Shown: positions 3,315 to 33,841 of the stretch, one piece after another
Layout: each line of letters starts with the position of its first letter
How positions within the stretch are numbered: position 1 is the stretch's first letter
Assembly (NCBI GenBank): GCA_037446815.1
Contig: JBBIHX010000018.1
Coordinates: forward strand, 1 to 34,017
Origin: Caldilineae bacterium
GTDB lineage: Bacteria > Chloroflexota > Anaerolineae > DTLA01
Length of the DNA: 34,017 nt
Direction of reading: 5' to 3'
Translations under genes and position numbers: made by a program
The notes under the pieces: generated by a model
Database searches by the model: none
What the model saw: only the letters and a program-made list of their open reading frames with translations
What the model was told of the DNA's origin: nothing

Positions 3315-3354
3315 GGCACGCTCCCGCACAGGATTCGCATTGTACGCCTGGGCT

Positions 3355-14611: not shown

Positions 14612-14653
14612 TACGGGTCGCACGCGTGGGTTTGTGTCCGCGTGATGGGTTAC

Positions 14654-14690
14654 TCGGCTCCCATGCTCGCACGTCGGGCATGGGAGCCGA
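14654..14690. repeat. 16-bp stem-loop downstream of the binding-protein gene
   Basis: TCGGCTCCCATGCTCG-cacgt-CGGGCATGGGAGCCGA, one G-U pair, no U-tract. Confidence 0.7.
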
Positions 14691-14769
14691 ATCTGAGCGG
14701 AGACGCGGCTCACCACCAACGAGCCTGGCGGCCGCTGGCGCGGATTCGGTTCCAAAGGCTGTTGGTACC

Positions 14770-14843
14770 CGTCATTGCGAGGGCACGCAGTGCGCGAAGC
14801 AATCTCCGGGGCGTGCGATTGCTTCGCTTCGCTCGCAATGACG
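14770..14843. repeat. Bipartite REP-like inverted repeat (GTCATTGCGAG...CTCGCAATGAC)
   Basis: 12-bp perfect terminal IR CGTCATTGCGAG / CTCGCAATGACG, with internal CGAAGCAATC / GATTGCTTCG arms. Confidence 0.8.
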
Positions 14844-14934
14844 CACGAGGCGAGTGCGCCTACGGTTCACCAACACAAGATGAAACCGACTCCTAACGCG
14901 TGGTGAGCCTGAACTTGTGCAGCAAGGGAGTAGC

Positions 14935-16236: not shown

Positions 16237-16278
16237 TCGGGGGCGGTCGGATATGCTAGGACGTAAGGAGAGAGGCGC

Positions 16279-17163
<885 letters not shown>

Positions 17164-17211
17164 CCGTGCGACTTTGGGCGCGAGTAGAACCGACATGAGA
17201 GGCAAGAGGGA

Positions 17212-19290
17212 ATGCAGCAAGCGCGTAGTGCTCCGATCCTGAGGGTGCAGGACCTGGCCATCGCCTACGAGACGCGCAAAGGCGATGTGGCCGCGGTGCG
17301 CAATGTGTCGTTTGAGATACGCCGCGGCGAGACCCTGGGCATCGTCGGCGAGTCGGGCTGCGGCAAAAGCACCGTGGCCTTCGGCATCGTCAACTTCCTG
17401 GGGCGGAATGGGCGCATCACCAACGGGCGCATCATCTTCCAGGGCCAGGACCTGGTGGGGCGCTCGGAAGAGGAACTGCGGCGGTTGCGCGGCGACCGCA
17501 TTGCCATGGTGTACCAGGACCCGATGCAGGCGCTGAACCCGTCGCTGCGCATCGGCGAGCAACTGAGCGAGGTGCTGGTGGTGCACCGAGGCATGAAGCG
17601 CAAAGAGGCCGAGGATCGGTGCATCCAGATGCTGCAGCGCGTGTACATGCCCGACCCGGCCAACGTTATGCGGCGCTACCCGCACCAACTGTCGGGCGGC
17701 CAGCAACAGCGTGTGGTCATCGCCATGGCGCTGCTCAACGACCCGGCGCTCCTCATCATGGACGAGCCCACCACGGCGCTGGACGTTACCGTGGAGGCGG
17801 CGGTCCTGGACCTGGTGGAGGAACTCCAGAAGGACTTTGACACTGCCATCATGTACATCAGCCACAACCTGGGCGTCATCGCCCGCGTGTCGGATAGGGT
17901 GGGGGTGATGTACGCGGGCGAGTTGGTAGAGCGCGCCTCGGTGGAGGAGGTGTTCCTGCGGCCGCACCATCCGTACACGCAGGGGCTGATGCGCTGCGTG
18001 CCCAGGCTGGGCATGGACAAGGCCAGCAGTTACCTGTATCCCATCAAGGGACGGGTTCCGCCGCCGGACCACCTGCCGCCGGGCTGCATCTTTGAGCCTC
18101 GCTGCCCCTACGCGCGGCCCGAATGTTGCCAGAGCCGGCCCGAACTTCGCCAGGTGGCCGATGGCCATTGGGCGCGCTGCCTGTTCGCCGAGGAGGTGGC
18201 GCAATCGGCCTGGGCGCCGCCGGAAGAGGTGCCTGTCCGTCTGCCTGTTGCACAGGCGACCGCGGACGAGAAGCCGCTGCTCCGCGTCCGCAACGCCCGC
18301 ACGTACTACGAGGTGCCGTCTCGCCAGATCATGGGGCGCAAGCAGGTGGTGAAGGCGGTGGACGGCGTGAGCGTGGAGGTGAGGCGCGGCCAGACGCTGG
18401 GCATCGTCGGCGAATCGGGCTGCGGCAAGACGACGCTGGTGAAGACCATCGTGGGCATGGAGAAGCCGACAGGCGGCGAGTTTGAGTTCATGGGCGTGGA
18501 CATCTCGGTGCCGGTTGCGCAGCGGAGCGTGGAGGTCATCCGCAACCTGCAGATGGTGTTCCAGAACCCGGATTCTACGCTGAACCCGTCGTTCAGCGTG
18601 GGGCAGCAGATCGCCTGGCCGCTGCGTCGCTTCCGGAAGGTGCCCCGCAATCAGGTCCGCGCCGAGGTGGTCCGCCTGCTGGAGATGATGAAACTGGGCG
18701 AGCGGTACTACGATCGCTTGCCCCGCCAACTGAGCGGCGGGGAGAAGCAGCGGGTGGGCATCGCACGGGCCATCGCAGGGTTGCCGGCGCTGGTGCTGTG
18801 CGACGAGCCGGTGTCGGCGCTGGATGTGTCGGTGCAGGCGGCGGTGCTAAACCTGTTGCTGGAGATTCAGGCGGGACTTGGCACGACGATGGTCTTCATC
18901 GCCCACGACTTGAGCGTGGTGCGCTTTTTCTGCGACTACATCGCGGTCATGTACCTGGGGCACGTGGTGGAATTTGGGCCGGCGGAGGCGATTTACGCGC
19001 CGCCGTACCATCCCTACACCGAGGCGCTCCTGTCGGCGGTGCCTTTCCCCGACCCGACGGTGGAGCAGAAGAGCATTCGCTTGAGCGGCACCGTGCCCAG
19101 CGCGCTGAACCCACCCAGCGGCTGCCGATTCCACACGCGGTGCCCGCGCAAACTGGGCGATATCTGCGAGCGAGAGACCCCGCCATGGCAGGAGGCCGGC
19201 AACGGGCATCGGATTTTCTGCCACATTCCGCTGGACGAACTGCGGAAGGTGGAGGCGGTGGTCGTCGCGCCGAGAAAAAACGAGAACTAG
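17212..19290 (+). CDS. Fused dual-domain ABC ATPase (DppD-DppF-like)
   Basis: Two GESGCGK Walker A motifs, LSGGQQQR and LSGGEKQR signatures, two Cys-rich oligopeptide-ABC C-terminal domains (GCxFxxRC). Confidence 0.95.
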
Positions 19291-19305: not shown

Positions 19306-20955
19306 ATGGCGAAGCGAGTCATACACCCGCCTACGGGTACTCAACTGACGTGCAAGAACTGGCTGATAGAGGCCGCGTATCGCATGATCCAGCACAATCT
19401 GGATCCCGACGTGGCCTTTGACCCCGACAACCTCATCGTGTACGGGGGGAGCGGCAAGGCGGCCCGCAACTGGGAATGCTTTGACGCCATCCTGGAAAGC
19501 CTGCGCAACCTGGAGCCAGACGAGACGCTCCTTGTCCAGAGCGGCAAGCCGGTTGCGGTCTTCAAGACCCACACCGATGCTCCCCGCGTGCTCATCGCCA
19601 ACTCCAACCTGGTGCCCGCCTGGGCGAAGCAGGACTATTTTGACGAGTTGGAGCGCAAGGGCCTCATCATGTACGGGCAGATGACGGCTGGGAGTTGGAT
19701 TTACATCGGGACGCAGGGCATCCTGCAGGGGACCTATGAGACGATGGCGGCATGCGCCAAGGCGCAGGGCTGGCCCAGCCTGAAGGGGAAGTTCGTCCTC
19801 ACCGCGGGCCTGGGCGAGATGGGCGGCGCGCAACCGCTGGCCGTTACCATGAACGAGGGCGTCGCGCTGGTGGTGGAGATTGACCGCTGGCGCGCCGAGC
19901 GGCGACTCCGCACCGGCTACCTGGACCGCATCGCCGAGAACGTGGAGGAGGCGATGACATGGGTGGAGGAGGCCGTCGCCGCCGAGCAGCCGCTGTCGGT
20001 CGGGCTTATCGGCAATGCCGCCGAGATTCTGCCGGAACTGGTGCAGCGCGGCGTGGTGCCCGATGTGGTAACGGACCAGACCAGCGCCCACGACCCGCTG
20101 CGCTACTTCCCGCGCGGTATGACCTTTGAGGAGGCCAAGGCGCTCCGCGAGCGCGATCCGGAAGAGTTCAAGCGCCGCGCCATGGAGTCCATGGCTGCCC
20201 ACGTGCAGGCCATGCTGGACTTCCAGGCCAAGGGGAGCGTGGTATTTGACTACGGCAACAACATCCGCCAGCGCGCCTATGACATGGGCGTGAAGAACGC
20301 CTTTGACTTCCAGGGGTTCGTGCCGCTGTACATCCGCCCGTTGTTCTGCGAGGGCAAGGGGCCTTTCCGCTGGGTGGCGCTGTCGGGCGACCCGCAGGAC
20401 ATCTACGTAACCGACCAGGTCATCATGGACCTGTTCCCGCACGATGAGCACCTGGTGCGGTGGATCAAGATGGCGCAGAAGAAGGTCAAGTTCCAGGGGT
20501 TGCCGTCGCGCATCTGCTGGCTTGGGTACGGCGAGCGGGCGAAGGCGGGACTGGCCTTCAATGACCTGGTGGCGAGCGGGCGGGTGAAGGCACCCATCGT
20601 CATCGGGCGCGACCACCTGGACGCGGGATCGGTGGCATCGCCGCGCCGCGAGACGGAGGGGATGAAGGACGGCTCGGATGCCATCTCGGACTGGGCGATC
20701 CTGAACGCGCTCATCAATGCCGTGAACGGCGCGACATGGGTGAGTTTCCATCACGGCGGGGGCGTGGGCATCGGCTACAGCCAGCACGCGGGCATGGTCA
20801 TTGTGGCCGACGGCACGCCCGAGGCGGCCCGCAGGCTGGAGCGCGTCCTCACCACCGATCCAGGGATGGGTGTGGTGCGCCATGCGGACGCGGGCTACGA
20901 GCGCGCGATTCAGGTGGCCAAAGAGCGCGGCGTCAAGATTCCCATGCTGAAGTAA
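19306..20955 (+). CDS. hutU: Urocanate hydratase
   Basis: [79 protein letters not shown]. Confidence 0.96.
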
Positions 20956-20978
20956 ACATAACTGCGGAGCAAGGGCCT

Positions 20979-22556
20979 GTGGGTTCTCGGTTGGTCATTG
21001 ATGGGAATAGCCTCACTCTGGAGGATGTGGTTGCCGTTGCCTACGCGCCGTCAAAGGGCGAGCACGTAGAGGTTGTCCTGTCCGAGGAGAGTAGCCGTCG
21101 GGTGCGGCGCGCGGAGAAGGCGGTTCAGGAATTCATCGCGCGCGGTGAGGTGGTGTACGGCGTTACGACGGGGTTCGGGGCGTTCAAGGGGCGCATCATC
21201 CCGCCTGACCAGGTGCGCCAACTCCAGCGCAACATCATCATGAGCCACGCGGTCGGGGTGGGCGAGCCGCTGGACGAGCCGACGGTCCGCGCGATGATGT
21301 TGATTCGGGCGAACGCCCTCGCCAAGGGGCATTCGGGCATCCGCCTGGAGACATTGCAACTGCTGCTGGACATGCTGAACCGCGGCGTGCATCCGGTGGT
21401 GCCGTCGCAGGGGTCTTTGGGGGCCAGCGGGGATTTGGCACCCCTGGCGCACATGGCGCTGCCCATCATCGGCCTGGGCGAGGCGGTGTACCGTGGCGAG
21501 CGCCTGCCTGGGGCCGAGGCTCTGGCGCGGGCCGGCCTGCGGCCCACAACGCTGGAGGCGAAGGAGGGGCTTGCGCTGACCAACGGCACGGCGCTGATGG
21601 CGGCCATCGGCGCGCTGACCACGTGGCAGGCGGAGAATCTGTCGCGCGTGGCCGACATCGCAGGCTGCTTGACGCTGGAGGCGACCTACGGGACGCCGCG
21701 GGCGTTTGACGCGCGAATCCACGCGGCGCGGCCACATCCCCGACAGGTGGAATGCGCTGCCTACCTGCGCACGCTCGTTGAGGGCAGCACCTTCACCCGT
21801 CCGGACGACCCGCTCAACGTGCAGGATGCCTACACGCTGCGGTGCATCCCGCAGGTGCATGGCGCGGTGCGCGACGCCATCGCCTACGCGCGGTGGGTGC
21901 TGAGCATTGAACTCAACTCGGCGACGGACAACCCGCTCATCTTTATTGACGAGGAGACGGGCGAGGCGACGGTGCTGTCGGGGGGGAACTTCCACGGCGA
22001 GCCGTTGGCCATCGCCATGGACTACTTGAGCCTGGCGCTGACCGAACTGGGCAATATCTCCGAGCGGCGACTGGCCCGCCTCACCGACGAGTCCAGCAAC
22101 GCGGAGACGCTGCCCGCGTTTCTGACGCGCGAGGGCGGCCTGAACTCGGGCTTCATGCTGACGCAGTACACGGCGGCGGCGCTGGCGTCGGAAAACAAGG
22201 TGCTGGCCCACCCCGCCAGCGCCGATACCATCCCGACCTCGGCGAACATAGAGGATCACGTGAGCATGGGGCCGACGGCGGCCCGCCACGCGCGCAGGAT
22301 TGCGGCCAACGTGGAGCGAATCCTGGCGCTGGAACTCATGGCGGCGGCCCAGGGGATTGACTTCCGCCGCGATGTCCTCGGCCCGTCGGCGCGGCTGGGC
22401 AAGGGCACGCGGGCCGCGTATGCGCTGATTCGCCAGCATGTCCCGTTCCTGGAGCGGGATGATGTGATGTATCCCCACATTGAGGCGGTTACCGCGCTGG
22501 TATCAAGCGGCGCGCTGGCAAGGGTTGTGGAGGAGGCCCTGGAGGGCAGGGGCTAG
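20979..22556 (+). CDS. hutH: Histidine ammonia-lyase (MIO enzyme)
   Basis: VYGVTTGFG, SH selectivity pair (IMSHAVG), SLGASGDLAPL MIO triad, KEGLALTNGT, QDAYTLRCIPQVHGA, GGNFHG, EDHVSMG; start placed at GTG 20979. Confidence 0.92.
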   Translation: MGSRLVIDGNSLTLEDVVAVAYAPSKGEHVEVVLSEESSRRVRRAEKAVQEFIARGEVVYGVTTGFGAFKGRIIPPDQVRQLQRNIIMSHAVGVGEPLDEPTVRAMMLIRANALAKGHSGIRLETLQLLLDMLNRGVHPVVPSQGSLGASGDLAPLAHMALPIIGLGEAVYRGERLPGAEALARAGLRPTTLEAKEGLALTNGTALMAAIGALTTWQAENLSRVADIAGCLTLEATYGTPRAFDARIHAARPHPRQVECAAYLRTLVEGSTFTRPDDPLNVQDAYTLRCIPQVHGAVRDAIAYARWVLSIELNSATDNPLIFIDEETGEATVLSGGNFHGEPLAIAMDYLSLALTELGNISERRLARLTDESSNAETLPAFLTREGGLNSGFMLTQYTAAALASENKVLAHPASADTIPTSANIEDHVSMGPTAARHARRIAANVERILALELMAAAQGIDFRRDVLGPSARLGKGTRAAYALIRQHVPFLERDDVMYPHIEAVTALVSSGALARVVEEALEGRG

Positions 22557-22574: not shown

Positions 22575-23228
22575 ATGCTTGTCAAAGACTACATGACCCG
22601 ACACCCGTTCTTGGCCGAGCCGTCCATGTCCATCGTGGAGGCCCAGCGCCTGATGGGCGAGAATAACATCCGCCATCTCCCCGTGGTGGGCGAAGGGAAG
22701 CGGCTTCTGGGGCTGGTAACGCGGAGTTCGCTCCTGGTGGATCCGGGCCGACTCAGCAGCCTGGACATGTGGGAGATTGCGCGCTACCTGTCGGGGCTCA
22801 CCGTGAAGGATGTGATGATCAAGGCGCGGGACGTGATCACGATTCACCCGGACGCGACGATAGAGGAGGCGGCCCGGGTTATGGTGGAGCGCAAGGTCGG
22901 CTGCCTGCCCGTGGTGGACGGCGAGTTCGTGGTGGGGATCCTCACCGATGCCGACATGATGGGGCACCTGATGCAGATGATGGCGGCGAGCATCCCGGCC
23001 GTGCGGGTTACGGTGCGCATGCCGGACGTGCGCGGGGAACTGGCGAAACTGGTGGGCGCCATCGCCGCGCAGGGGTGGGGCATCCTGGCGCTGGGCGGCG
23101 CGCCTGCCCCACGCGAGCCGGGGAAGTGGGACGCCGTGGTCAAGATTCGGTACGTTACGAAGGAGCAGGTGGCGAATGCGCTCTCCCAGGTGGAGGGACA
23201 GCAAATCGTTGACCTGCGCGAGGTGTAG
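22575..23228 (+). CDS. CBS-pair plus ACT-domain protein (AcuB-like)
   Basis: VKDYMT...IRHLPVV, VKDVM...VGCLPVVD...VGILT, then an ACT-like C-terminus DVRGELAKLVGAI; AAGGAGG RBS. Confidence 0.85.
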   Translation: MLVKDYMTRHPFLAEPSMSIVEAQRLMGENNIRHLPVVGEGKRLLGLVTRSSLLVDPGRLSSLDMWEIARYLSGLTVKDVMIKARDVITIHPDATIEEAARVMVERKVGCLPVVDGEFVVGILTDADMMGHLMQMMAASIPAVRVTVRMPDVRGELAKLVGAIAAQGWGILALGGAPAPREPGKWDAVVKIRYVTKEQVANALSQVEGQQIVDLREV

Positions 23229-23247
23229 GCCCGACGTTGAGGTGCGA

Positions 23248-23347
23248 NNNNNNNNNNNNNNNNNNNNNNNNNNNNNNNNNNNNNNNNNNNNNNNNNNNNN
23301 NNNNNNNNNNNNNNNNNNNNNNNNNNNNNNNNNNNNNNNNNNNNNNN
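23248..23347. other. Scaffold gap of 100 N
   Basis: Run of N flanked on both sides by TTGAGGTGCGA. Confidence 0.99.
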
Positions 23348-23359
23348 TTGAGGTGCGAA

Positions 23360-24388
23360 TTGAGCGAATCCAACACGGCGCTCGTGGAAGAATTCATCGG
23401 CGTTTTTGACGTGTGGGAACCGGCGCGCCCGTATCTCTCCATGATGGTGGATGAGGCGGAGATGGCCCTGGTGCTGGCCATGCGAGGAGAGACGCTGCCG
23501 CCGGCCGAGGTTGCCCGCCGCCTGGACATGCCCGAGAATGCGGCGCAGGCGCTACTGGAGCGCGCGTACCGGCGGGGCGTCATCAACAAATCGGCGGAGG
23601 GCGAGGCCGCGCTCTACTCGGCGGCGGATTTCTACACGCGCCTGGACGTGTTCGCCAAGTTTGAGAACTGGGACGACATCCCGCCCGAGGATCGCAAGGC
23701 CATCAATCGGCGATACCTGGACGAGTTCATCCGGCGCGTGCGGCCCAAGGTGGAGCAGTTGATGGCGGGCGCGCCAGCGGTGGAAGGCTTGCACAACAAC
23801 GATGTGCTCCTCCTGCACGAGGTGGAGGAGATGCTGGACGCGGCCACGGACATCGTGGTTCAGCCGTGCGACTGTCGCCGCCTGGGCCAGAACTGCACTC
23901 GCCCGGTGGAGACGTGCATTTGGCTGGACAAGTCGGCGCGCGACGCGCTAGACCGCGGCCACGGGCGGCGCCTGACGCGCGAGGAGGCGAAGGCCCTGGT
24001 GCGCCACGCGGATCGCAAGGGGCTGATGCACACAGGCGACAGCAAGTGGCGGACGAACGGACTGTCGCCCATCTGCAACTGCTGCGCCTGCGACTGCTAT
24101 CCCTTCAACGCGGCCCGCGAAATCGGGAGCAAGGGCGTATGGCCGCGAAGCCGATATGTGGCCGTCCACGACCGCGCCGCGTGCTCCTTCTGCGGGCTGT
24201 GCGTCCGGCGCTGCCATTTTGGCGCTTTCTATCACGACGGCGGCGAGGTAACTGTGGCCGGCAAGACGCTGCGCAACGTTGAGTTTGACCCCGCGAAGTG
24301 CTGGGGCTGCGGGCTGTGCGCCAACTCGTGCCCGACCGGGGCTATCGCCATGCGCCCGCTATCCCCCATCCCCGACAGGACGCCGTGA
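23360..24388 (+). CDS. Fe-S protein: N-terminal wHTH-like region, CxC/CNCCxCxC cluster and 2x[4Fe-4S] ferredoxin domain
   Basis: PCDCRR...C..P.ETC, ICNCCACDC, CSFCGLCVRRC, CWGCGLCANSCP; TTG start at 23360 after GAGGTG (uncertain because of the adjacent gap). Confidence 0.8.
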   Translation: MSESNTALVEEFIGVFDVWEPARPYLSMMVDEAEMALVLAMRGETLPPAEVARRLDMPENAAQALLERAYRRGVINKSAEGEAALYSAADFYTRLDVFAKFENWDDIPPEDRKAINRRYLDEFIRRVRPKVEQLMAGAPAVEGLHNNDVLLLHEVEEMLDAATDIVVQPCDCRRLGQNCTRPVETCIWLDKSARDALDRGHGRRLTREEAKALVRHADRKGLMHTGDSKWRTNGLSPICNCCACDCYPFNAAREIGSKGVWPRSRYVAVHDRAACSFCGLCVRRCHFGAFYHDGGEVTVAGKTLRNVEFDPAKCWGCGLCANSCPTGAIAMRPLSPIPDRTP

Positions 24389-24396
24389 GAGGGACA

Positions 24397-25803
24397 ATGC
24401 CCGCGATTGTGCATCTGCTCGCCGTGCCCGCGGTGGGCGGCTACTACTGCGAAGACCTGGCTGCGCTCCAGTCCAATCCCATGCCTGTGGCGGAGCGCTA
24501 CACGACGCCTGGCGTTACGCCGGGTTTCCGCCGCGTGCGCGAGGTGGCCGAGGCGGTGTCGGTGGGGCTGGTGCTGGACGACGGGCGCGTGGCCTGGGGC
24601 GATTGCGTCGCGGTGGCGTACAGCGGCAAGGCGGGGCGGTATCCCGTGTTCCGCGCCGAGGATGGCATGGCAACGCTGCGCGAGGTTGTTGCGCCCGCGC
24701 TGGAGGGCCGGCCGCTGACGGGGTTCCGTCCGCTGGCTGACGCCGTGGAGGGCCTGGGGGAGTCGGTCCTTGAGGAGCGGCCTGTGGAATTGCCCGAAGG
24801 GCAGCGGAGCGGGCTGTCCCGCCGCGACCTGCTGACGGGCCGGTTTGCGCGGGCGGGGGACGCCCCGGCCATCCGCACGGAGAGGGTTGCCGTAACGCGG
24901 CCGCTGCATACGGCGGTGCGCTACGGGGTGAGCCAGGCGCTGCTGGGGGCGGTGGCGCTGGCGCGGGGCCTGACGATGGCCGAGGTCATCGCCGACGAGT
25001 GGGGATTGCCCGCGCCCGCCGAGCCGGTGCCGATCCATGCCCAGTCGGGCGGCGAGCGGTACGCCAACGTGGACAAGATGATCGCACGGCGGGTGGCGTC
25101 GCTTCCCCACGCGCTGGTGGACAACATCCCCGAGCAGTTGGGCAGCGACGGCTCCAAACTGGTGCAGTATGCCCGCTGGGTGAGGGAGCGCATCCAGACG
25201 CTGGCGGGCTCGGACTATCAGCCCATGATACACCTGGACGTGCACGGGGCGCTAGGGCATATCTTTGACAACAACCTGGGCAAGGTGCTGGGCGTCCTGT
25301 ATGCGCTGGAGTCGGCAGCGCGGCCCTATCCCCTGCGGGTGGAATGCCCGGTGATGCTCCAAAGCCGCGAGGCGCAGATAGAGGCCATGCGCACGCTGCG
25401 GGAGTACATCCGAGCGCGCGGGATGCGCGTGCAGTTGGTGGCCGACGAGTGGGCCAACACGCTGGACGACATCCGCGCCTTCGTGGACGCGGGGGCGGCG
25501 GACGTGGTGCAAATCAAGATGCCCGACCTGGGCAGCGTTCACAACGCGGTGGATGCCGTCCTCGCGTGCAGGCGGGGCGGCGTGGGAGCGTTTCTCGGCG
25601 GGAGTTGCGCCGAGACCGACCTGTCGGCCCGCGTGAGCGTCCACGTCGCGCTCGCCGCCCGGCCGGATATGGTGATGGCAAAGCCAGGCATGGGCGTGGA
25701 CGAAGCCGTCATGCTTGTGCAGAACGAGATGGGGCGCGCGCTGGCCGAGATGGGCTTGCGCCGCGGCACCAACCGAATCCATGAGGAGACAAAGGAGTCA
25801 TGA
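24397..25803 (+). CDS. mal: Methylaspartate ammonia-lyase homologue (enolase superfamily) with altered substrate pockets
   Basis: GDC..V.YSG, LHTAVRYG, AQSG..RY.NVDKMI, LPHAL, HLDV.G, VADEW.NT, QIK.PDLG, AKPGMGVDE; GAGGGA RBS before ATG 24397. Confidence 0.88.
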   Translation: MPAIVHLLAVPAVGGYYCEDLAALQSNPMPVAERYTTPGVTPGFRRVREVAEAVSVGLVLDDGRVAWGDCVAVAYSGKAGRYPVFRAEDGMATLREVVAPALEGRPLTGFRPLADAVEGLGESVLEERPVELPEGQRSGLSRRDLLTGRFARAGDAPAIRTERVAVTRPLHTAVRYGVSQALLGAVALARGLTMAEVIADEWGLPAPAEPVPIHAQSGGERYANVDKMIARRVASLPHALVDNIPEQLGSDGSKLVQYARWVRERIQTLAGSDYQPMIHLDVHGALGHIFDNNLGKVLGVLYALESAARPYPLRVECPVMLQSREAQIEAMRTLREYIRARGMRVQLVADEWANTLDDIRAFVDAGAADVVQIKMPDLGSVHNAVDAVLACRRGGVGAFLGGSCAETDLSARVSVHVALAARPDMVMAKPGMGVDEAVMLVQNEMGRALAEMGLRRGTNRIHEETKES

Positions 25804-27239
25804 GATCCGCAAATCGCATCGCATTCACATCGCCGCAGTTCGCAGTTCTCTCGGAGCAGCAAAAGCAGGATCTGCACCTGGCCGCGCTGGAGGTGTTGCG
25901 CCGCACGGGCGTGCGGTTCCACCATCGGGGCGCGCTGGAGATGCTGAAGAAGGCCGGGGCCTTCGTGTCCGACGGCAATCTGGTGAAGTTTCCGGCGCGG
26001 CTCATCACCGAGGCGCTGTCGTCGCCGCCGAGCCGCGTCGTCATGTGCGACCGGGATGGCGCGCCGGCCATGTTGCTGGAGGGGACCCGGACGTACTTCG
26101 GGACTGGGTCGGATTGCCTGAACCTTCTGGACCCGGAGACGGGGGCCCATCGCCCGTTCACCCAGGCCGACATCGTGAACGGCTACCATCTGTGCGAGGC
26201 GCTGCCCAACATCCACTTCGTGATGTCCATCGGAATCCCGTCGGATGTGGCGCCGGCCCTGACCTACGACGTGCAGATGGCGCTGATGCTGGAGCACACG
26301 ACCAAGCCCATTGTCTTCGTTACCAACGACGGGGCCAGTTGTCGGCGGGCGATTGACATGGCGGCAGCGGTGGCAGGCGGGCACGAGGCCTTGCGCGAAC
26401 AGCAGCATATTCTGCTGTACTCGGAGCCTTCGTCGCCGCTCCAGCAGTCGGAGACGGCGGTGGACAAGTTGCTCCTTATGGCCGAGCACGAACTCCCCGT
26501 AGTGCACTCGCCTGGGCCACAGATGGGCGCGACGGCTCCCATCACGATGGCGGGCGGGCTGGTGATGTCGCTGGCGGAAATCCTGAGCGGCCTGGTTGTG
26601 CACCAGTTGCACAGGCCGGGCGCGCCATTTGTCTTTGGCGCGGGCCTGCACCACATGGACATGGGCGCGATGCAGATTTGCTACGCTTCGCCCGAGTTCC
26701 AGTTGACCAAGGCAGCGGTGGCCGAGATGGGGCGCTGGTACGGGCTGCCCACGTGGGGATACGCGGGCTGCTCCGACGCGAAGGTGATGGACGAGCAGGC
26801 GGCGCTGGAGGCCATGCTGTCGGTCCTCATGGCGAAACTCAGCGGGGCGAACCTGATTCACGACGTGGGCTACATGGAAAGCGGCCTTACCACATCGTTT
26901 GAGATGATCGTGCTGACCGACGAACTCGTCGCGATGGCGGATCACGTGATGAAGGGCATTGAGGTCAGCGAGTCCACGCTCATGGTGGATGAACTGGATG
27001 CGGTGGGGCCAGGCGGCAACTTCCTGGGGACGCGCACGACGCTCCAGCGGTTCCGCGAGTTCTGGTTCCCGAGCCTCTTGGATCGCAAGATGCGGCCGCA
27101 GTGGGTGGAGGCTGGGGCGACAACCCTGGGGCAGCGACTCACGGCAAAGGTGCGGGACATCTTGCGGAATCATTCGCCGAAACCGCTGCCGCCGGAAATC
27201 AAGCGGCGCGTGTGGGACATCGTCTCCAGCGCCAACTAA
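25800..27239 (+). CDS. Non-pyrrolysine MttB-superfamily methyltransferase, paralogue 3
   Basis: LHLAALEVLRRTGV, GATAPITMAG, YGLPTWGYAGCSDAK, HDVGYMESG, VGPGGNFL; ATGA overlap with mal. Confidence 0.92.
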   Translation: MRSANRIAFTSPQFAVLSEQQKQDLHLAALEVLRRTGVRFHHRGALEMLKKAGAFVSDGNLVKFPARLITEALSSPPSRVVMCDRDGAPAMLLEGTRTYFGTGSDCLNLLDPETGAHRPFTQADIVNGYHLCEALPNIHFVMSIGIPSDVAPALTYDVQMALMLEHTTKPIVFVTNDGASCRRAIDMAAAVAGGHEALREQQHILLYSEPSSPLQQSETAVDKLLLMAEHELPVVHSPGPQMGATAPITMAGGLVMSLAEILSGLVVHQLHRPGAPFVFGAGLHHMDMGAMQICYASPEFQLTKAAVAEMGRWYGLPTWGYAGCSDAKVMDEQAALEAMLSVLMAKLSGANLIHDVGYMESGLTTSFEMIVLTDELVAMADHVMKGIEVSESTLMVDELDAVGPGGNFLGTRTTLQRFREFWFPSLLDRKMRPQWVEAGATTLGQRLTAKVRDILRNHSPKPLPPEIKRRVWDIVSSAN

Positions 27240-27272: not shown

Positions 27273-28730
27273 GTGGATACGAACTACAGCGCTCATCAGA
27301 CTCCGCAATTCCGCGTGCTGTCGGATGCGCAGGCGCGGGTCATCTACTACGGGGCCTTGGAGGTCCTGAACCGCACGGGCGTGAATGTGCACAACGCCGA
27401 GGCGCGGGACTTGCTGGCGAAGGCCGGCGCTCGCGTGGATGGCGTGCGGGTATGGATTCCGCCGCACATCGTGCAGGACGCCATCGCCGCGACGCCGCGC
27501 ACGTTCACCCTGTGGGGCAGGGATGGCAAGCCGCGCATCCAGGTGGCGCCGGACCGCGTTCACTTCGGCCCCGGGCTGACGAACACGTATTTCGTAGACC
27601 CGGAGACCGGCGAGCGGCGCAAGACGCGGCGCGGCGACCCGGCGCTCACCGCCAAGGTGTGCGATGCGCTGCCGAACATAGACTACGTCATGGGGCTGGG
27701 CCTCATCGGCGACGTGCCGCCCAACCTGGCCCCCGTGTACGAGTTCGCGGAGATGGTGGCCAACACCACGAAACCGGTGATGCCCTGGGCCTACAACCTG
27801 GACAACGCGCGCGACATCTACGAGATTGCGGTGGCGGTGGCAGGCAGCGAAGAGGCCCTGCGTCGTCGGCCGTTCCTGGCCTTCTTCGCCACGTTCCAGG
27901 CGCCGCTGATGGCGACGGATCACGATTTGGCCAACGTGCTGTGGATGGCCGAGCGGGGGATTCCGGTCATCTACCTGGGCGGGGGCGCGGCGGGCAGCAC
28001 GGCGCCGATTACCGGCGCGGGGCTCCTGGTGTCGTATCTGGCGGGGGCGCTGACCGGGCTTGTGGCGGTGCAACTGAAGGCGCGCGGCGCTCCCATTTGT
28101 ATCGGGGGCGTCCCCGAGCCGACGGACCTTCGCACGGCCCGCCCGGCCTACGGCGGCCCGGAAATGAGCCTGTACAGCGCGGCCATGTCAGATTTGGCGC
28201 GGTACCTGGGCGTGCCGTTCATGGGGACGGCCGGGGCGTCCGAGGCCAAGGTGCTGGACCTGCAGGCGGCGATTGAGTGCACGGTTCAGGTGCTGATGTC
28301 CGGCCTGAGCGGGGCGAGCCTGGTGCACGATGTGGGCTTCCTGGATTGCGCCGACATCGGCTCGCTGGAGTCGGTTGTCATGAACGATGAGATCATCGCC
28401 ATGGCGCGCCGAATCCTGCGCGGGGTTGAGGTCAGCGACGCGAGCATGATGCTGGACCTGATTGACAAGGTTGGCCCCGGCGGCGAGTTCATGTCCACCA
28501 AAGAGACGGCCAAACTGTGCCGCTCCGAAATCTGGACGCCCACGCTGTTTGACCGCGAGCCGTGGGTCAATTGGGAGATGAACGGCGCGCTGACCACGCT
28601 GGACCGCATTCGCCGGAAACTGCGCGACATCCTCGCGAATCACCGCGTGCCGCCGCTGCCCGCCGAGACCGAGGCGCGCATCCGCGCCATCTTGGAGGCC
28701 GCCGAGGCACGCGAGCGACGCAACGGGTAG
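27273..28730 (+). CDS. Non-pyrrolysine MttB-superfamily methyltransferase, paralogue 4
   Basis: ALEVLNRTGV, GSTAPITGAG, LGVPFMGTAGASEAK, HDVGFLD, VGPGGEF; GTG start. Confidence 0.92.
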   Translation: MDTNYSAHQTPQFRVLSDAQARVIYYGALEVLNRTGVNVHNAEARDLLAKAGARVDGVRVWIPPHIVQDAIAATPRTFTLWGRDGKPRIQVAPDRVHFGPGLTNTYFVDPETGERRKTRRGDPALTAKVCDALPNIDYVMGLGLIGDVPPNLAPVYEFAEMVANTTKPVMPWAYNLDNARDIYEIAVAVAGSEEALRRRPFLAFFATFQAPLMATDHDLANVLWMAERGIPVIYLGGGAAGSTAPITGAGLLVSYLAGALTGLVAVQLKARGAPICIGGVPEPTDLRTARPAYGGPEMSLYSAAMSDLARYLGVPFMGTAGASEAKVLDLQAAIECTVQVLMSGLSGASLVHDVGFLDCADIGSLESVVMNDEIIAMARRILRGVEVSDASMMLDLIDKVGPGGEFMSTKETAKLCRSEIWTPTLFDREPWVNWEMNGALTTLDRIRRKLRDILANHRVPPLPAETEARIRAILEAAEARERRNG

Positions 28731-28736
28731 ACGGCT

Positions 28737-31487
28737 ATGGGCACTGCGATCTCGTTCACGCTCAACGGGCGGCCGGTAACGGTTCAGACGGAGCCAACGC
28801 GCACGCTGCTGGAGGTCCTCCGCTCCGAGTTCGGCCTCACGGGGACCAAGCAGGGCTGCGACCTGGAGGGGGAGTGCGGAGCCTGCACCGTGCTGCTGGA
28901 TGGAGTGCCGGTGCGGTCGTGCCTCACGCCGATGGGCAAAGTGGCGGGGCGGGATGTGTTGACCGTGGAGGGGCTTGGCGACCCCGACCACTTGCACCCG
29001 CTGCAACGGGCGTTCGCCGAGACGGGCGCGGTCCAGTGCGGGTACTGCACGCCCGGGATGCTCATGGCGGCTGCCGGCCTGCTGACGCGCAATCCCAACC
29101 CCACCCGCGCGGAGATTGTGGAGGCGCTGGAAGGCAACCTGTGCCGCTGCACCGGCTACGTGCGGATTGTGGCCGCGGTGGACTTGGCGGCGGCGTGGAT
29201 GCGCGGCGACGCGCCATCGGGCGTTGCCGCGCCGCAGACGAGGCCCGTCGGCGGGGACCTGCTGCGGGTGGACATCGCCGAGCGAGTTACCGGCCGCACG
29301 CGGTATGTGGAAGACATGCCCATGCCCGGCGCGCTCCACGTGCGGGTTGTGCGCAGTCCCCACCCCCACGCACGCGTGGTGGCCATAGACGCGGGGCGGG
29401 CGATGCAAGTGCCCGGCGTGCTGCGGGTGCTCACCGCGGCCGACATCCCAGGGCAGAACAGCATTGAGGGCTACAGCAAGGACGAGACGGTGCTGGCGCC
29501 CGTGGGCGGCACGGTCAAGATGGTGGGGGATGCGGTGGCGCTGGTGATTGCCGAGACGCCAGAGGCAGCGGAGGAGGGCCGACGGGCGGTCAGGGTGTCG
29601 TATGAGCCGCTGCCTGCGCTCCTGGATGTGGACGAGGCCCTTGCGCCCGACGCCGTGGAAATCCACGCTGGCGGGAACGTGCTGAGCACCTTTTCGGTGG
29701 CGCATGGAGATGTGGATGAGGCGCTGGCTGCGAGCGACGCGGTGCTGGACGTAACGTACCGCACGTCGTACCTGGAACACGCCACAATAGAACGCGAGGC
29801 GGCCCTGGGGTATATAGACGAAGAGGGTCGCATCACCATCGTGAGCGGGACGCATGAGCCGCACTGGCATCGGGACTTCGTCGCGCCGGTGCTGGGGCTG
29901 GAGCCGTCGCAGGTTCGGGTCATCATGCCGCCCACGGGCGGGTCCTTCGGCAAGCGCCAGGATCCGTGGCTGGCGGCGGCGACGGCGCTGGCGGTGTACC
30001 ACATGCGACGACCGGTGCGCGTGGCCTACACCCGCCGCGAATCCTTTGACGCCTCGCCCAAACGACACCCGTACACAAGCCGGTACACGGTGGGCGCGAC
30101 CGCCGATGGGAGAGTTACGGGTCTGCGACTGCACATCACCGCCAACACGGGCGCGTATGACTCCGGGGGCTACTGGATTCCCAACTACGCCGTGGTGGCA
30201 GGCGGCGGGCCATACCGCTGGCGGGGCGTGGACGCCTTCGCGCAGAGTGTCTATACCAACGGGCCCAAGTCGGGCCAGATGCGCGGATACGGCACGCCGC
30301 AGTCCAACTTTGCCCTGGAGTGCACCCTGGACGAGTTGATACAGCGGCTGGGCGATGATCCGGTGGAGTTCCGCTTGCGCAATGCCATTCGGCAGGATGA
30401 GGCCACATGGCTCGGCTACCCCGTGGCGGAGTCGCTGGGCTACCGCGAGGTGCTGGAGGCGATTCGCCCGCACTATCGGGCGCTTGAGGCGGCGGCGCGT
30501 GCATTCAACGAAGGCGAAGGCCCTTGGCGCAGAGGCGTGGGGCTGGCGGGCATGTGGTACCGCTTCGGCAAGTACGGCATCCCGCGCGTCGCGGCGGAGG
30601 CGGAACTGGGGCTGGACGGGCGTTTCGTCGTGTACTGCTCCGCGCCGGACTACGGACAGGGCATCACAACCGTGATTGTGCAACTGGCCGCCGAGACGCT
30701 GGGCGTTTCGCGCGACGCCATCCGCCTGGTGAACGCGGACACGGCGACGACGCTGGATAGCGGGGTTCCCGGGGCGTCGCGAGCCACCTACTGGGTCGGC
30801 GGGGCGGTGTCCCGCGCGGTGGCGGCGTTGCGGGAGGTGGTGGCCGAAGCGGCGTCGGAGATGCTGGACTGCCCGCCGTCGGCCGTCGTGTTGGCCGATG
30901 ACCGCGCGCTGGTGCAGGGCGACCGGAGCCGTTTCGTTCGCCTGGGCGATGTTGCGGCGGAAATGGAGCGGCTGGGGCAGTCCCGCAAGGTACGGGGCGT
31001 CTTTGACTTGAGCGCGCAGTTCCCCAATCATGAGCGGGAAGTGTACACGCCCCATTTCGTTACCGGCGCGCAGGTGGCCGAGGTGCTGGTGAACGTGGCG
31101 ACGGGCCAGGCGCGGGTAACTCGCATGGTGGCGGCGCACGATGTGGGCCGGGCCATCAACCCACGGGACGCTCGTGGGCAGATAGAAGGGGCCATTGTGA
31201 TGGGGCTGGGGGCTGCGCTGATGGAGGAGTACGTGCCGGGGGTTACCACCGGCTTCTCCAACTACTACATTCCCACGGCCAAGGCCATGCCCGAGATAGA
31301 CGTCATCCTGGTGGAGGTGCCGAGTTATCAGGGGCCTCTCGGCGCGAAGGGGCTGGGCGAGGCGCCGATACTCCCTACCGCGCCGGCCATTGTCAACGCC
31401 ATCTCCCGCGCCATCGGCGCGCGCATCCACGAGATTCCCGCCACGCCCGAGCGCATCCTGGCTGCTAGAGGGGGAGGGCTACGATGA
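28737..31487 (+). CDS. Xanthine dehydrogenase/aldehyde oxidoreductase-family molybdoenzyme with fused 2x[2Fe-2S] and Mo-binding domains
   Basis: TKQGC..GECGACTV, QCGYCTPG, NLCRCTGY, RSPHPHA, GGSFGKR, MRGYGTPQ, YGQG, GQIEG, AKGLGE. Confidence 0.93.
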   Translation: MGTAISFTLNGRPVTVQTEPTRTLLEVLRSEFGLTGTKQGCDLEGECGACTVLLDGVPVRSCLTPMGKVAGRDVLTVEGLGDPDHLHPLQRAFAETGAVQCGYCTPGMLMAAAGLLTRNPNPTRAEIVEALEGNLCRCTGYVRIVAAVDLAAAWMRGDAPSGVAAPQTRPVGGDLLRVDIAERVTGRTRYVEDMPMPGALHVRVVRSPHPHARVVAIDAGRAMQVPGVLRVLTAADIPGQNSIEGYSKDETVLAPVGGTVKMVGDAVALVIAETPEAAEEGRRAVRVSYEPLPALLDVDEALAPDAVEIHAGGNVLSTFSVAHGDVDEALAASDAVLDVTYRTSYLEHATIEREAALGYIDEEGRITIVSGTHEPHWHRDFVAPVLGLEPSQVRVIMPPTGGSFGKRQDPWLAAATALAVYHMRRPVRVAYTRRESFDASPKRHPYTSRYTVGATADGRVTGLRLHITANTGAYDSGGYWIPNYAVVAGGGPYRWRGVDAFAQSVYTNGPKSGQMRGYGTPQSNFALECTLDELIQRLGDDPVEFRLRNAIRQDEATWLGYPVAESLGYREVLEAIRPHYRALEAAARAFNEGEGPWRRGVGLAGMWYRFGKYGIPRVAAEAELGLDGRFVVYCSAPDYGQGITTVIVQLAAETLGVSRDAIRLVNADTATTLDSGVPGASRATYWVGGAVSRAVAALREVVAEAASEMLDCPPSAVVLADDRALVQGDRSRFVRLGDVAAEMERLGQSRKVRGVFDLSAQFPNHEREVYTPHFVTGAQVAEVLVNVATGQARVTRMVAAHDVGRAINPRDARGQIEGAIVMGLGAALMEEYVPGVTTGFSNYYIPTAKAMPEIDVILVEVPSYQGPLGAKGLGEAPILPTAPAIVNAISRAIGARIHEIPATPERILAARGGGLR

Positions 31488-32380
31488 CGCTGTATCACGT
31501 GGCTGCGTCGGTAGAGGAAGCCTTGAGGGTTCTGGAAGAGTACGGCGGCGAGGCGCGCATCATCGCAGGCGGGACGGATGTGATGGTAGACATGCGCAAG
31601 GGGAAGATTGCGCCGCGCTGTCTGGTAGACATAACTCGGATTGCGGAGTTGCGGCAGATTGCCGTTGAGGGCGAGGTGGTGCAGGTCGGGGCTGCCGTAA
31701 CCTTCGCCGAGATTCACCGGCACCCGTTCATCGCGCGGCGCGTTCACGTGCTGGCCGAAGCCGCGCGCTCGGTGGGCGCGCTGCCGATCCAGACGGCGGC
31801 GACATGGGCGGGCAACATCGTGCAGGCGATGCCCGCCGCCGACGGCGCCATCGCGGCGGTGGCGTTGCAGGCCGAGGCCCGCGTGGCCGACAGGGCGGGG
31901 GCGGAGTGGAAACCCGTGGAGGCGCTCTTCGCGGGGCGGGGGGTCTCGGCGGTGGATTCGCGCCGCCAGATGATCACCCACATCCGATTTCGCGTGCCGC
32001 CGGTGCGGTGGGGGAGCGCGTGGAGCCGCGCAGGACGCCGGGAGTCGCTGGTGCTGCCCACGCTGAACTGCGGGGTAAGCGTGCGCCTGGGCGATGATGG
32101 CAGGATTGAGGATGTGGCCATCGCGCTGGGGCCTGTGGCTCCGCGCCCGTACCGCGCCCGGGACGCGGAGGCGGTCCTGCGCGGGAGGTTGCCCGATGCG
32201 GATGCTTTCGCCGAAGCGGGCTGCGTCATCAGCGGCGATTGCAACCCACGCACCAGCCCGGCCCGGGCGACCCGCGAATACCGCCTGGCGCTGATTCCGG
32301 AGATGGTGGTGCGGACGCTGGAGGCGGCCACGGAGCGCGCCCGGCATTTGACAGAAGAGGCAGTGCCTTCCAATATTTGA
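31484..32380 (+). CDS. FAD-binding (medium) subunit of the Mo-hydroxylase
   Basis: IAGGTD, VGAAVT, IQTAATWAGNIVQAMPAAD, IALGPVAPRP; ATGA overlap at 31484-31487. Confidence 0.92.
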   Translation: MTLYHVAASVEEALRVLEEYGGEARIIAGGTDVMVDMRKGKIAPRCLVDITRIAELRQIAVEGEVVQVGAAVTFAEIHRHPFIARRVHVLAEAARSVGALPIQTAATWAGNIVQAMPAADGAIAAVALQAEARVADRAGAEWKPVEALFAGRGVSAVDSRRQMITHIRFRVPPVRWGSAWSRAGRRESLVLPTLNCGVSVRLGDDGRIEDVAIALGPVAPRPYRARDAEAVLRGRLPDADAFAEAGCVISGDCNPRTSPARATREYRLALIPEMVVRTLEAATERARHLTEEAVPSNI

Positions 32381-32410: not shown

Positions 32411-33841
32411 ATGACAATCAGTACCCAGGCATTTCCACGGTTGGAGATGCTCACCAAGGAGCAGTGCGAAGTCATCCACCGCGCGTCGCTGGAGATTTTG
32501 CGGCGGACCGGCGTGCGCGTGTACCACGAGGAGGCGCTGACCCTGTTGCGGCAGGCGGATGTCAGCATCACCGACGGCAACCTGGTGCGGTTCCAGCCCG
32601 GGCTTGTGGAGTGGGCCTTGGCGCAGGCGCCGTCGCGCATCGCCCTGTGCAAGCGGGGGAGCAACGAGGTGGGCGCGGCGTTGGAGGGGCGCAACGTGAA
32701 CTTCGGCACCGGCTCGGACTGCCCCAACTACTTGGATCCGCGCACCGGGCAGGTTCGCCCGTTCACGCTGGCCGACGTGGTGGACGCGATTCACGTGGTG
32801 GACGCTCTGCCCGAGTTGCAGTTCTGCATGTCCATGGGCATTCCGTCGGACCTGAAGACGGCCAACGCCTACCGCCATCAGTTTGCGCTCATGCTGGAGC
32901 ACACGACGAAGCCCATCGTGTTCGTGTGCGACGACCGCGCCGACTGCGAGGCGATTTCGGCGATGGCAGCGGCGGCCGCAGGAGGCATGGAGCAGTTGCG
33001 GCTGAATCCCACGCTGCTGCTGTATTCCGAGCCGTCCACGCCGCTGAAGCATTCCGAGACGGCCACGGGCAAATTGCTGTTCATGGCCGAGAACATGTTG
33101 CCCATCGTGCACTCGCCCGCGCCCATGATGGGCGGGACGGCGCCGGTAACCATGGCGGGCGCGCTGGCCCTGGGCAACGCGGAAACGCTGTCCAGCCTGG
33201 TGATGCACCAATTGAAGCGCCCTGGTGCGCCGTTTGTGTACGGGAGCGGCCTGCACCACATGGACATGAAGACGACCATCAGCGTGTACGGCGCGCCGGA
33301 GTTCCAGTTGGCCCGCGTGGCCGTGGCCGAGATGGGGCGCTTCTACGGCTTGCCCACGTGGGGGTACGCCGGCCACTCGGACAGTTGCACCATGGACGAG
33401 CAGGCGGCGGCCGACGCGACGTTCTCCGTCCTGGTGGCGCTGCTGGCGGGCAACAACCTGGTGCACGATGTGGGCTACCTGGAAGCCGGCCTGACGACAT
33501 CGCCGGAGATGATCGTGTTCACCGCGGAAATCATCTCCATGATGCGCGCGTTCATGGGCGGCGTGGCGCTGGATGCCGAGTCGCTGGCGCTGGACGTGAT
33601 TCACAAGGTGGGGCCGGGCGGCGACTTCCTCACCCAGAAGCACACGCTGAAGCACTTCCGCGACCTGTGGGAGCCGAGCCTGTTCAGCCGCCAGCGGATG
33701 GAGGATTGGGTGGCGCAGGGCAGCAAGCGGTTGGGGCAGCGCCTGAAGGAGAAGACGCTTGCCATCCTTGAGAGCCACAAGCCGCAGCCGCTGCCGGATT
33801 CGGTGCGCGCGGAGATTGAGTACATTCTGAAGGGCAAGTGA
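32411..33841 (+). CDS. Non-pyrrolysine MttB-superfamily methyltransferase, paralogue 5
   Basis: IHRASLEILRRTGV, GGTAPVTMAGAL, YGLPTWGYAGHSDS, HDVGYLEAG, VGPGGDFL; AGGAGG RBS. Confidence 0.93.
   Translation: MTISTQAFPRLEMLTKEQCEVIHRASLEILRRTGVRVYHEEALTLLRQADVSITDGNLVRFQPGLVEWALAQAPSRIALCKRGSNEVGAALEGRNVNFGTGSDCPNYLDPRTGQVRPFTLADVVDAIHVVDALPELQFCMSMGIPSDLKTANAYRHQFALMLEHTTKPIVFVCDDRADCEAISAMAAAAAGGMEQLRLNPTLLLYSEPSTPLKHSETATGKLLFMAENMLPIVHSPAPMMGGTAPVTMAGALALGNAETLSSLVMHQLKRPGAPFVYGSGLHHMDMKTTISVYGAPEFQLARVAVAEMGRFYGLPTWGYAGHSDSCTMDEQAAADATFSVLVALLAGNNLVHDVGYLEAGLTTSPEMIVFTAEIISMMRAFMGGVALDAESLALDVIHKVGPGGDFLTQKHTLKHFRDLWEPSLFSRQRMEDWVAQGSKRLGQRLKEKTLAILESHKPQPLPDSVRAEIEYILKGK

Follow-up and report, generated by a model that had tools for sequence, protein, structure and literature searches.

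The DNA analyzed here, a stretch of 34,017 nucleotides from a Caldilineae bacterium (contig JBBIHX010000018.1; in the following called the window), contains a gene for a 468-residue homologue of methylaspartate ammonia-lyase (MAL) that lies among genes for corrinoid-dependent methyl transfer. Judged by its sequence, the protein belongs to a clade of Chloroflexota proteins that stands as a subfamily of its own within the MAL branch of the enolase superfamily. The hallmarks of this clade are His170, Phe356, Leu357, Ser360 and Met384 (numbering of the Clostridium tetanomorphum enzyme, CtMAL) together with an insertion of 47-70 residues predicted as a β-hairpin, and not Ala73. The genomic evidence argues strongly that the protein is not the methylaspartase of glutamate fermentation. 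We tentatively propose, with slightly less than even confidence, that it serves a corrinoid-dependent operon as a C-N lyase, releasing a methylated amine from a betaine intermediate of the aspartate type.

Pocket residues and insertion of the MAL homologue

Both sequence and predicted fold place the protein in the MAL family. It matches the Pfam models PF07476 (2.5e-102) and PF05034 (2.7e-46), which together represent MAAL_N and MAAL_C, and reaches 463 bits with the NCBIfam model TIGR01502, whose equivalog cut-off is 286. In a phmmer comparison with the PDB sequences, the top chain was the engineered CtMAL variant Q73A (3ZVH, E 5e-116), and the alignment with CtMAL showed no gaps around any motif (residues 4-117, 169-269 and 270-456 correspond to residues 3-116, 125-225 and 227-413 of CtMAL). 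The structure predicted with AlphaFold2 from an 84-row alignment (pLDDT 95.4, pTM 0.92) is a TIM barrel of the enolase superfamily with a capping domain. In a Foldseek search, it matched four MAL entries, including 1KCZ and 1KKO, with TM scores of 0.91-0.96 (normalised to the target) and 42% identity, and the nearest non-MAL structures were dipeptide epimerases and muconate cycloisomerases with 12-17% identity.

The fold and the catalytic residues are shared with the MALs of C. tetanomorphum and Citrobacter amalonaticus (1KCZ, 1KKO; EC 4.3.1.2). The Mg ligands D238, E273 and D307, the catalytic Lys and His (K331 in the motif QIK and H194 in LPHAL), Q172, Q329 and C361 are all kept, in agreement with the initial annotation of this DNA, which had noted the ligands and the two catalytic motifs. 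With this full set retained, the protein is predicted to be catalytically intact. The pockets differ from those of CtMAL and the Citrobacter enzyme. In the amine pocket, Gln73 is replaced by Ala while Gln172 is kept, and the 3-methyl pocket, Phe170/Tyr356/Leu384 in the canonical enzyme, reads His/Phe/Met. These four replacements had been read from the sequence before, and the phmmer alignment combined with codon mapping put each of them exactly at the presumed position, including the Ala at position 73 on which that reading depended. Two further pocket changes, C357 to Leu and T360 to Ser, had gone unnoticed. In CtMAL, F170, Y356, T360 and C361 are pocket residues, and S/T360, C361 and Q172 presumably hold the amino group and the carboxylate at C1. 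A role of L384 in the methyl pocket is described in PMC7586795.

The engineered Q73A variant shares Ala73 with our protein but keeps F170, Y356 and L384, unlike the clade with its changed C3 pocket. According to PMC7586795, it accepts linear amines and cycloalkylamines, and the wild-type enzyme already accepts methylamine and ethylamine. The earlier idea that Ala73 widens the amine scope therefore stands for larger amines, but the exchange is not required for small N-alkyl groups.

An insertion absent from the initial annotation distinguishes the protein further from CtMAL and the Citrobacter enzyme: 51 residues (118-168) replace eight residues of CtMAL (117-124). They are predicted to form an arm with strands at residues 121-129 and 161-169 and a short helix at the tip (142-147; pLDDT about 77) that bears the S/T-RRDLLT motif. 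The arm was found in all 149 clade sequences of the tree described below, but in neither the sister nor the canonical group. Its invariant pair Arg142/Arg143 may contact a substrate carboxylate, another subunit or a docking partner. When a complex between the MAL homologue and the methyltransferase MttB4 (Table 1) was predicted with two alignments, the score was 0.00 and the method thus gave no answer. The motif S/T-R-R-D-L-L-T that includes the Arg pair (residues 142-148; 24820-24840) resembles the core of a twin-arginine signal, yet is located some 140 residues from the start of a cytoplasmic enzyme.

A word-index search returned 3083 relatives, and residues were counted in the best 120 clusters (66-85% identity, 452-492 residues), whose named sources are metagenome-assembled genomes (MAGs) of Chloroflexota/Anaerolineae. 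Each residue of the catalytic set (Mg ligands, K331, H194, Q329) is kept in 119-120 of these clusters. The pocket pattern is similarly conserved (H170 in 120, F356 in 118, L357, S360 and C361 in 119 each, M384 in 111) and therefore not due to chance. Position 73, by contrast, is Ala in 70 clusters, Glu in 49 and Ser in one. An exhaustive HMMER search of representatives of clusters at 50% identity gave 253 proteins at E ≤ 1e-30. Across this wider family, the pocket signatures of the 111 full-length representatives are far more diverse than the canonical Q-F-Q-H...Q-K-Y-x-T-C-L, and 32 of them have His170. In a FastTree phylogeny of 245 MAL-family sequences, a single split (support 0.995) comprises all 149 tips that combine the insertion with H170, and no other sequence. 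Within this clade, position 73 is Ala in 86 tips, Glu in 59, Ser in two and Cys in one, but never Gln, and parsimony indicates about ten switches. Engineered Q73A carries Ala at a site where the natural clade alternates between Ala and Glu. One split further out (support 0.992), the clade is joined by 19 sequences, which belong to a sister subfamily without the insertion.

Among 201 genomes sampled from the same class, 21 had a match at E ≤ 1e-30, 19 of these with at least 53% identity, and all four other genomes of the bacterium's own genus were among them. Five of 22 MAL matches in the class sample (G093, G124, G168, G189, G041) contain one TAG inside the matched stretch, which may just reflect a match running beyond the stop codon. 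Two proteins of 831 residues from outside the window (P0271, P0272) contain further sequence in addition to a MAL domain with 45% identity to the homologue of the window; in one of them, this sequence includes a Peptidase_M29 domain. A search for fused forms returned no MAL-MttB fusion, an empty result that is weak evidence.

Genomic neighbourhoods of the clade and its relatives

We scanned 185,579 species genomes and obtained 69 loci: 29 clade loci of useful length, two clade fragments and 38 loci of other MALs. Neighbouring genes were called by tblastn with proteins from the window and from relatives. Genes for MttB homologues without pyrrolysine were present in 27 of the 29 clade loci (the exceptions being L019 and L024), but in none of the 38 other MAL loci. 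In 21 clade loci, an MttB gene was the first recognized gene downstream of the MAL homologue, most commonly the counterpart of MttB4, and the MAL homologue is accompanied by three conserved groups of MttB orthologues. In the window itself, the translational coupling to an MttB gene (ATGA) reported in the initial annotation is borne out by the sequence. The expected link between MttB genes and a clade defined by Ala73 and His170 therefore holds for the clade and for His170, but not for Ala73.

The clade loci share further functions. A Zn alcohol dehydrogenase is encoded in 11 of the 29 and a Mo oxidoreductase of the xanthine dehydrogenase (XDH) type in nine. A tungsten-type aldehyde:ferredoxin oxidoreductase occurs in three, in two of them (L057, L058) at the position of the Mo enzyme and in L009 upstream. 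Further genes encode an Asp/Glu-racemase-like protein (6/29), a major facilitator superfamily (MFS) carrier (4/29) and a PrpD-family protein (4/29), whose best PDB match is the epimerase of iminodisuccinate (IDS), an N-substituted aspartate (E 1e-29). A PDB sequence search with the 262-residue racemase-like neighbour gave no match. In 5/29 loci (L004, L006, L008, L009, L020), the gene immediately before the MAL homologue encodes a HypA-like protein (nickel metallochaperone family). All five have Glu73, and wherever enough upstream sequence exists, an MFS carrier replaces the ABC importer. A tie of Ala73 versus Glu73 to gene context was rejected, as Glu73 also occurs in loci of the ABC/CBS type (L012, L017, L033).

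Unlike genes of the CtMAL type, the clade gene is situated in MttB/corrinoid operons and does not follow glutamate mutase. Glutamate mutase was found neither in the window nor among the 69 scanned flanking open reading frames (ORFs) of the clade loci, and in the bacterium's own genome (93.6% complete) the model PF06368 for glutamate mutase E gave no convincing match, the best being partial with 30.9 bits. Canonical MALs, on the other hand, are directly preceded by GlmS-GlmL-GlmE in three of six canonical loci scanned (L028, L034, L035), followed in L034 and L035 by fumarase or citramalate-lyase-type genes; L041, L047 and L052 have neither kind of neighbour. Plain 3-methylaspartate is thus an unlikely substrate, as had been suspected from the pocket residues.

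In the own genome, which at this completeness yielded neither PylS nor PylD, seven MttB paralogues were found, all with uninterrupted frames. An IDS-epimerase-like gene lies on another contig beside a sixth MttB gene and a pyridoxal phosphate (PLP) enzyme of the Cys/Met-metabolism type (C200:534-4625, L073), a family that works on homoserine- and methionine-type skeletons. The pairing of MttB with this type of PLP enzyme recurs in L008 and L010. Contig C40 was considered as a continuation of the window and rejected, since its alcohol dehydrogenase gene points toward the contig end.

The sister subfamily also lacks Gln73. It has His or Gln at position 170 and Ser and His in place of Q172 and Q329, respectively (signature S/A-H/Q-S-H/A...H-K-L-L-S-C). 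A second scan yielded 25 sister loci, most of them from MAGs with the label Bdellovibrionota or Oligoflexales. Their conserved operon (L042, L056, L059, L061, L069, L085-L107) encodes a HalD-like oxygenase, an Aldedh protein similar to betaine-aldehyde dehydrogenase (BADH), a BCCT carrier and the MAL-like lyase, with Aldedh in 23, the HalD-like oxygenase-family protein in 22 and BCCT in 17 of the loci. The best models for the Aldedh protein are betaine-aldehyde dehydrogenases (516 bits, below the equivalog cut-off), and the best model for the carrier is of the glycine-betaine type. None of the 25 loci contains an MttB or corrinoid protein gene, and three encode an ArsM-like S-adenosylmethionine-dependent methyltransferase. 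Our searches found no characterization of this subfamily. In both branches without Gln73, the lyase homologue is thus accompanied by a transporter and by enzymes that oxidize an alcohol or aldehyde to the acid. In the aerobic branch, the enzymes are of the O2/NAD type and the carrier is of the betaine type; in the Chloroflexota branch, oxidation would fall to a Zn alcohol dehydrogenase and a Mo/W-ferredoxin set, and corrinoid-dependent demethylation is added. The sister operon therefore resembles an aerobic version of one shared logic, in which an alcohol or aldehyde is oxidized to an acid before the lyase acts, and lends independent support to a role in betaine catabolism.

Five alphaproteobacterial loci (L060, L063, L064, L065, L068; Aquamicrobium, Paracoccaceae, Mesorhizobium, Chelativorans, Propylenella) contain two to four MAL paralogues each, with signatures I-L-S/G-H...Q-K-Y/C that lack Gln73 and Phe170; to judge from their sequences, they form another MAL subfamily. 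Their neighbours include family-5 ABC importers (L060, L065, L068), an aldehyde dehydrogenase, a creatinase/M24 protein, an AstE/AspA-type hydrolase (L064) and a large flavoprotein with Oxidored_FMN and Pyr_redox domains (L065).

Genes of the window

By its gene content, the whole window can be read as a methyl-transfer island (Table 1). From the permease gene Perm1 to MttB5, all gaps between genes are ≤ 48 nt. The stop of the upstream gene and the start codon of the MAL homologue (ATG) are 8 nt apart, and a purine-rich stretch precedes this ATG. A gene for a GntR regulator is located between the second of the early MttB genes and the importer genes, and the binding protein of the importer is closest, weakly, to NikA models (nickel/opine type). 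The listed hutH ORF overlaps hutU by 220 nt, and the match to the family model begins at residue 86; the likely GTG start lies 23 nt past the hutU stop. In a PDB sequence search for the substrate class of MttB4, the protein was equally far from MtgB chains (2QNE, 9YCE; glycine betaine) and from the trimethylamine MttB (7XCL). At the edge of the island, a Type ISP restriction-modification enzyme of 1075 residues is encoded on the opposite strand (102-3329, minus; N6_Mtase and Type_ISP_C domains).

Table 1. Positions of the features of the window; residue numbers are those of the MAL homologue unless CtMAL is named.
Feature	Position	Strand	Basis or remark
Methyltetrahydrofolate:corrinoid methyltransferase	4419-5291	+	Family models
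ASKHA/hydantoinase-A-like protein, putative activase	5617-8043	+	Family models
Corrinoid protein	8089-8721	+	Family models
Two further MttB genes	8910-10355 and 10367-11806	+	Family models
Opp/Dpp/Nik-type ABC importer (family-5 binding protein, two permeases, double ATPase)	12884-19290	+	In 16/29 clade loci
hutU	19306-20955	+	Above equivalog cut-off
hutH	ORF 20736-22556, likely start GTG 20979	+	Above equivalog cut-off
Stand-alone CBS-pair protein	22575-23228	+	In 17/29 clade loci
Polyferredoxin-like Fe-S protein	23237-24388	+	Directly upstream of MAL homologue; in 11/29 clade loci
MAL-family gene, 468 residues, member of the MttB-linked Chloroflexota clade	24397-25803	+	Translation, Pfam, NCBIfam, phmmer, AlphaFold2/Foldseek
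Ala74 codon (CtMAL Gln73), amine pocket	24616-24618	+	phmmer alignment, codon mapping; in the clade Ala or Glu, never Gln
Clade-specific insertion, residues 118-168, predicted β-hairpin arm	24748-24900	+	Alignment, AlphaFold2
Arg142-Arg143 of the S/T-RRDLLT motif	24820-24825	+	Invariant in 48/48 aligned clade members
His214 codon (CtMAL Phe170)	25036-25038	+	Alignment, codon mapping; His in 120/120 best clade clusters
His238 (CtMAL His194), R-specific base	25108-25110	+	Alignment; role from PMC7586795
Mg ligand codons Asp281, Glu316, Asp350 (CtMAL D238, E273, D307)	within 25237-25446	+	Each in 120/120 clusters
Gln372-Ile-Lys374 (CtMAL Q329, K331; K331 S-specific base)	25510-25518	+	Alignment; base role from PMC7586795
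Phe399, Leu400, Ser403, Cys404 (CtMAL Y356, C357, T360, C361)	25591-25608	+	Alignment
Met427 codon (CtMAL Leu384)	25675-25677	+	Alignment; Met 111, Leu 9 in 120 clusters
MttB3, MttB-family methyltransferase	25800-27239	+	No in-frame stop; start overlaps MAL stop (ATGA)
MttB4, MttB-family methyltransferase	27273-28730	+	In other loci, the gene most often found downstream of the MAL homologue
Mo enzyme, xanthine-dehydrogenase/aldehyde-oxidoreductase type, 2Fe-2S and molybdenum cofactor domains	28737-31487	+	Pfam, NCBIfam
Flavin (FAD) subunit of the Mo enzyme	31484-32380	+	Pfam, NCBIfam
MttB5, MttB-family methyltransferase	32411-33841	+	Pfam, NCBIfam, tblastn

Proposed function and alternative explanations

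In MAL chemistry, the proton alpha to the Mg-bound carboxylate is removed and the amine on the next carbon is expelled, which requires an aspartate skeleton. Because the expelled amine is beta to the Mg-bound carboxylate, the homologue would act as a C-N lyase on a methylated β-ammonio acid. Lys374 would enolise the carboxylate, with His238 on the opposite face, and the leaving group could be mono-, di- or trimethylamine. An aspartate-type dicarboxylate is favoured as substrate because S/T360, C361 and Q172, the presumed holders of carboxylate and amino group, are kept; the product would then be fumarate or a substituted fumarate. The idea of an N-alkylated substrate had been put forward in the initial annotation, and a methylated amine indeed fits the gene neighbourhoods. 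In the proposed pathway, the substrate would be imported by the ABC or MFS carrier, and its terminal alcohol would be converted to the aldehyde by the Zn alcohol dehydrogenase and further to a second carboxylate by the aldehyde oxidoreductase (Mo or W type), with electrons presumably carried by the polyferredoxin. MttB paralogues without pyrrolysine would move at least one methyl group to the corrinoid protein and on to tetrahydrofolate, before the MAL homologue cleaves the C-N bond. Substrate class, direction of the lyase, order of the steps and identity of the betaine are all deduced. The simplest candidate for this scheme would be a route from homoserine betaine via aspartate-semialdehyde betaine to aspartate betaine, or to the N,N-dimethyl or N-methyl derivatives; β-alanine betaine formed from homocholine is a second candidate.

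The scheme can be compared with several known systems. EDDS (ethylenediamine disuccinate) lyase and the IDS C-N lyase cleave N-substituted aspartates to fumarate and an amine, and four clade loci include an IDS-epimerase-like gene. The analogy is one of function only: these enzymes have the unrelated aspartase/fumarase fold and no metal-stabilised enolate, and the MAL homologue does not have that fold. With the MtgB, MtpB, MtcB and MtyB systems, the window shares MttB homologues without pyrrolysine, a corrinoid protein and a methyltetrahydrofolate methyltransferase. In the literature accessible to us, we found no publication that joins a methylaspartate ammonia-lyase with MttB, and titles and abstract openings on the MttB superfamily (glycine betaine, γ-butyrobetaine, choline, tetramethylammonium, chloromethane and dichloromethane systems) mention no C-N lyase partner. 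As far as the sources were accessible, literature searches likewise gave no degradation pathway for homoserine betaine and nothing relevant on a lyase for alanine betaine or homocholine. A 2021 preprint calls the fate of homoserine betaine (trimethylated homoserine) unknown (10.1101/2021.03.10.434842).

Several observations weigh against a betaine lyase. The importer of the window is of the peptide/nickel/opine type and has no classical betaine binding protein, and the orthologue of the Zn alcohol dehydrogenase in the own genome (68% identity) is encoded on another contig, outside the operon. A single pocket closely fitted to an N-substituent is made less plausible by position 73, which changes back and forth between Ala and Glu. 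If di- or trimethylamine were expelled, its remaining methyl groups would be lost to an organism without pyrrolysine, and if the three MttBs stripped all methyl groups, plain aspartase activity would suffice. Characterized MttBs without pyrrolysine are not known to act on other than quaternary amines or to remove more than the first methyl group. The Pfam and NCBIfam scans covered 69 of the 130 unexplained flanking ORFs, the other 61 being mostly short or on the opposite strand. Homoserine betaine as the specific source was arrived at by pathway logic, and we regard it as doubtful.

An aspartase-like enzyme, which would form fumarate and ammonia from L-aspartate (or from a 3-substituted aspartate) after the MttBs have removed all methyl groups, would agree with the three conserved MttB orthologue groups, with the retention of Q172 and every catalytic residue, and with the concentration of the conserved changes in the C3 pocket (H170, F356, M384), which would be adapted away from the 3-methyl group, while position 73 varies. 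It is unlikely in view of the limit of MttBs to the first methyl group, the complete lack of Gln73 in the 149 tips, and the sister subfamily, which has also lost Gln73 but has no MttB, so that its amine would still be methylated. The two invariant bases of the clade, K331 and H194, could alternatively invert a stereocentre beside the Mg-bound carboxylate and pass the isomer of a betaine to MttB. Such an epimerase has a precedent in the enolase superfamily, the 4-hydroxyproline betaine 2-epimerase (HpbD type), and the racemase- and IDS-epimerase-like genes lend the operons a stereochemical theme. The same genes, however, mean that several loci already hold a dedicated enzyme of this kind. Moreover, the residues presumed to bind the C1 carboxylate and the amine are retained, and the sister operons make their substrate via an aldehyde dehydrogenase with no amine-removing enzyme seen downstream. 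We therefore consider an epimerase rather improbable.

Two further explanations start from the hut genes. A canonical MAL in a route from histidine via Hut enzymes, glutamate and 3-methylaspartate to mesaconate would account for the score above the equivalog cut-off, the nearby corrinoid protein, and hutU and hutH in the operon with hutI and a formiminotransferase elsewhere in the own genome. With these genes present and glutamate mutase E not found, histidine could reach glutamate but not 3-methylaspartate. Given also the GlmS-GlmL-GlmE genes directly before canonical MALs, the alteration of all three methyl-pocket residues and the presence of hutU/hutH, which are accessory genes, in just four of the 29 fetched clade loci (L001-L003, L012) besides the window, this explanation is very unlikely. 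The initial annotation had instead suggested that N-pi-methylhistidine is converted by the Hut enzymes to an N-methylated glutamate- or aspartate-type intermediate from which the homologue frees methylamine. The dipeptide-type importer and the same hut genes agree with this, but the idea fails on both chemistry and distribution: the product would be N-methylglutamate, which lacks the β-amino-carboxylate arrangement needed by MAL chemistry, and most clade loci have no hut genes. A glutamate-derived route to the aspartate skeleton needs a mutase, which was not found, and HutH and HutU are canonical by score. We consider it extremely improbable. In a bolder reading, likewise highly improbable, the lyase would be reversible and add a secondary or tertiary methylamine, e.g., trimethylamine, to fumarate, MttB would demethylate the adduct, and the lyase would free the demethylated amine. 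The tertiary amine left from a first demethylation would be a candidate as well; a charged N-(1,2-dicarboxyethyl) ammonium would be formed and fumarate regenerated. Fumarate would thus be a small-molecule stand-in for pyrrolysine and allow corrinoid-dependent use of methylamines without the 22nd amino acid. Such a cycle would be consistent with the strict lyase-MttB linkage, with the Pyl genes not being found and with an invariant Arg pair available for the extra carboxylate.

So far, one function has been assigned to the whole MAL branch, and all such proteins are automatically annotated as methylaspartate ammonia-lyase. The present analysis points to two related and widespread MAL subfamilies in betaine-type operons, an anaerobic one in Chloroflexota linked to corrinoid proteins and MttB and an aerobic one linked to BCCT carriers and BADH-like enzymes. 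If the proposed C-N lyase function is correct, the Chloroflexota enzyme would supply a missing C-N cleavage step in the catabolism of quaternary amines, offer a candidate route for homoserine betaine, and parallel, as a natural enzyme, the engineered Q73A biocatalyst for N-substituted aspartates.

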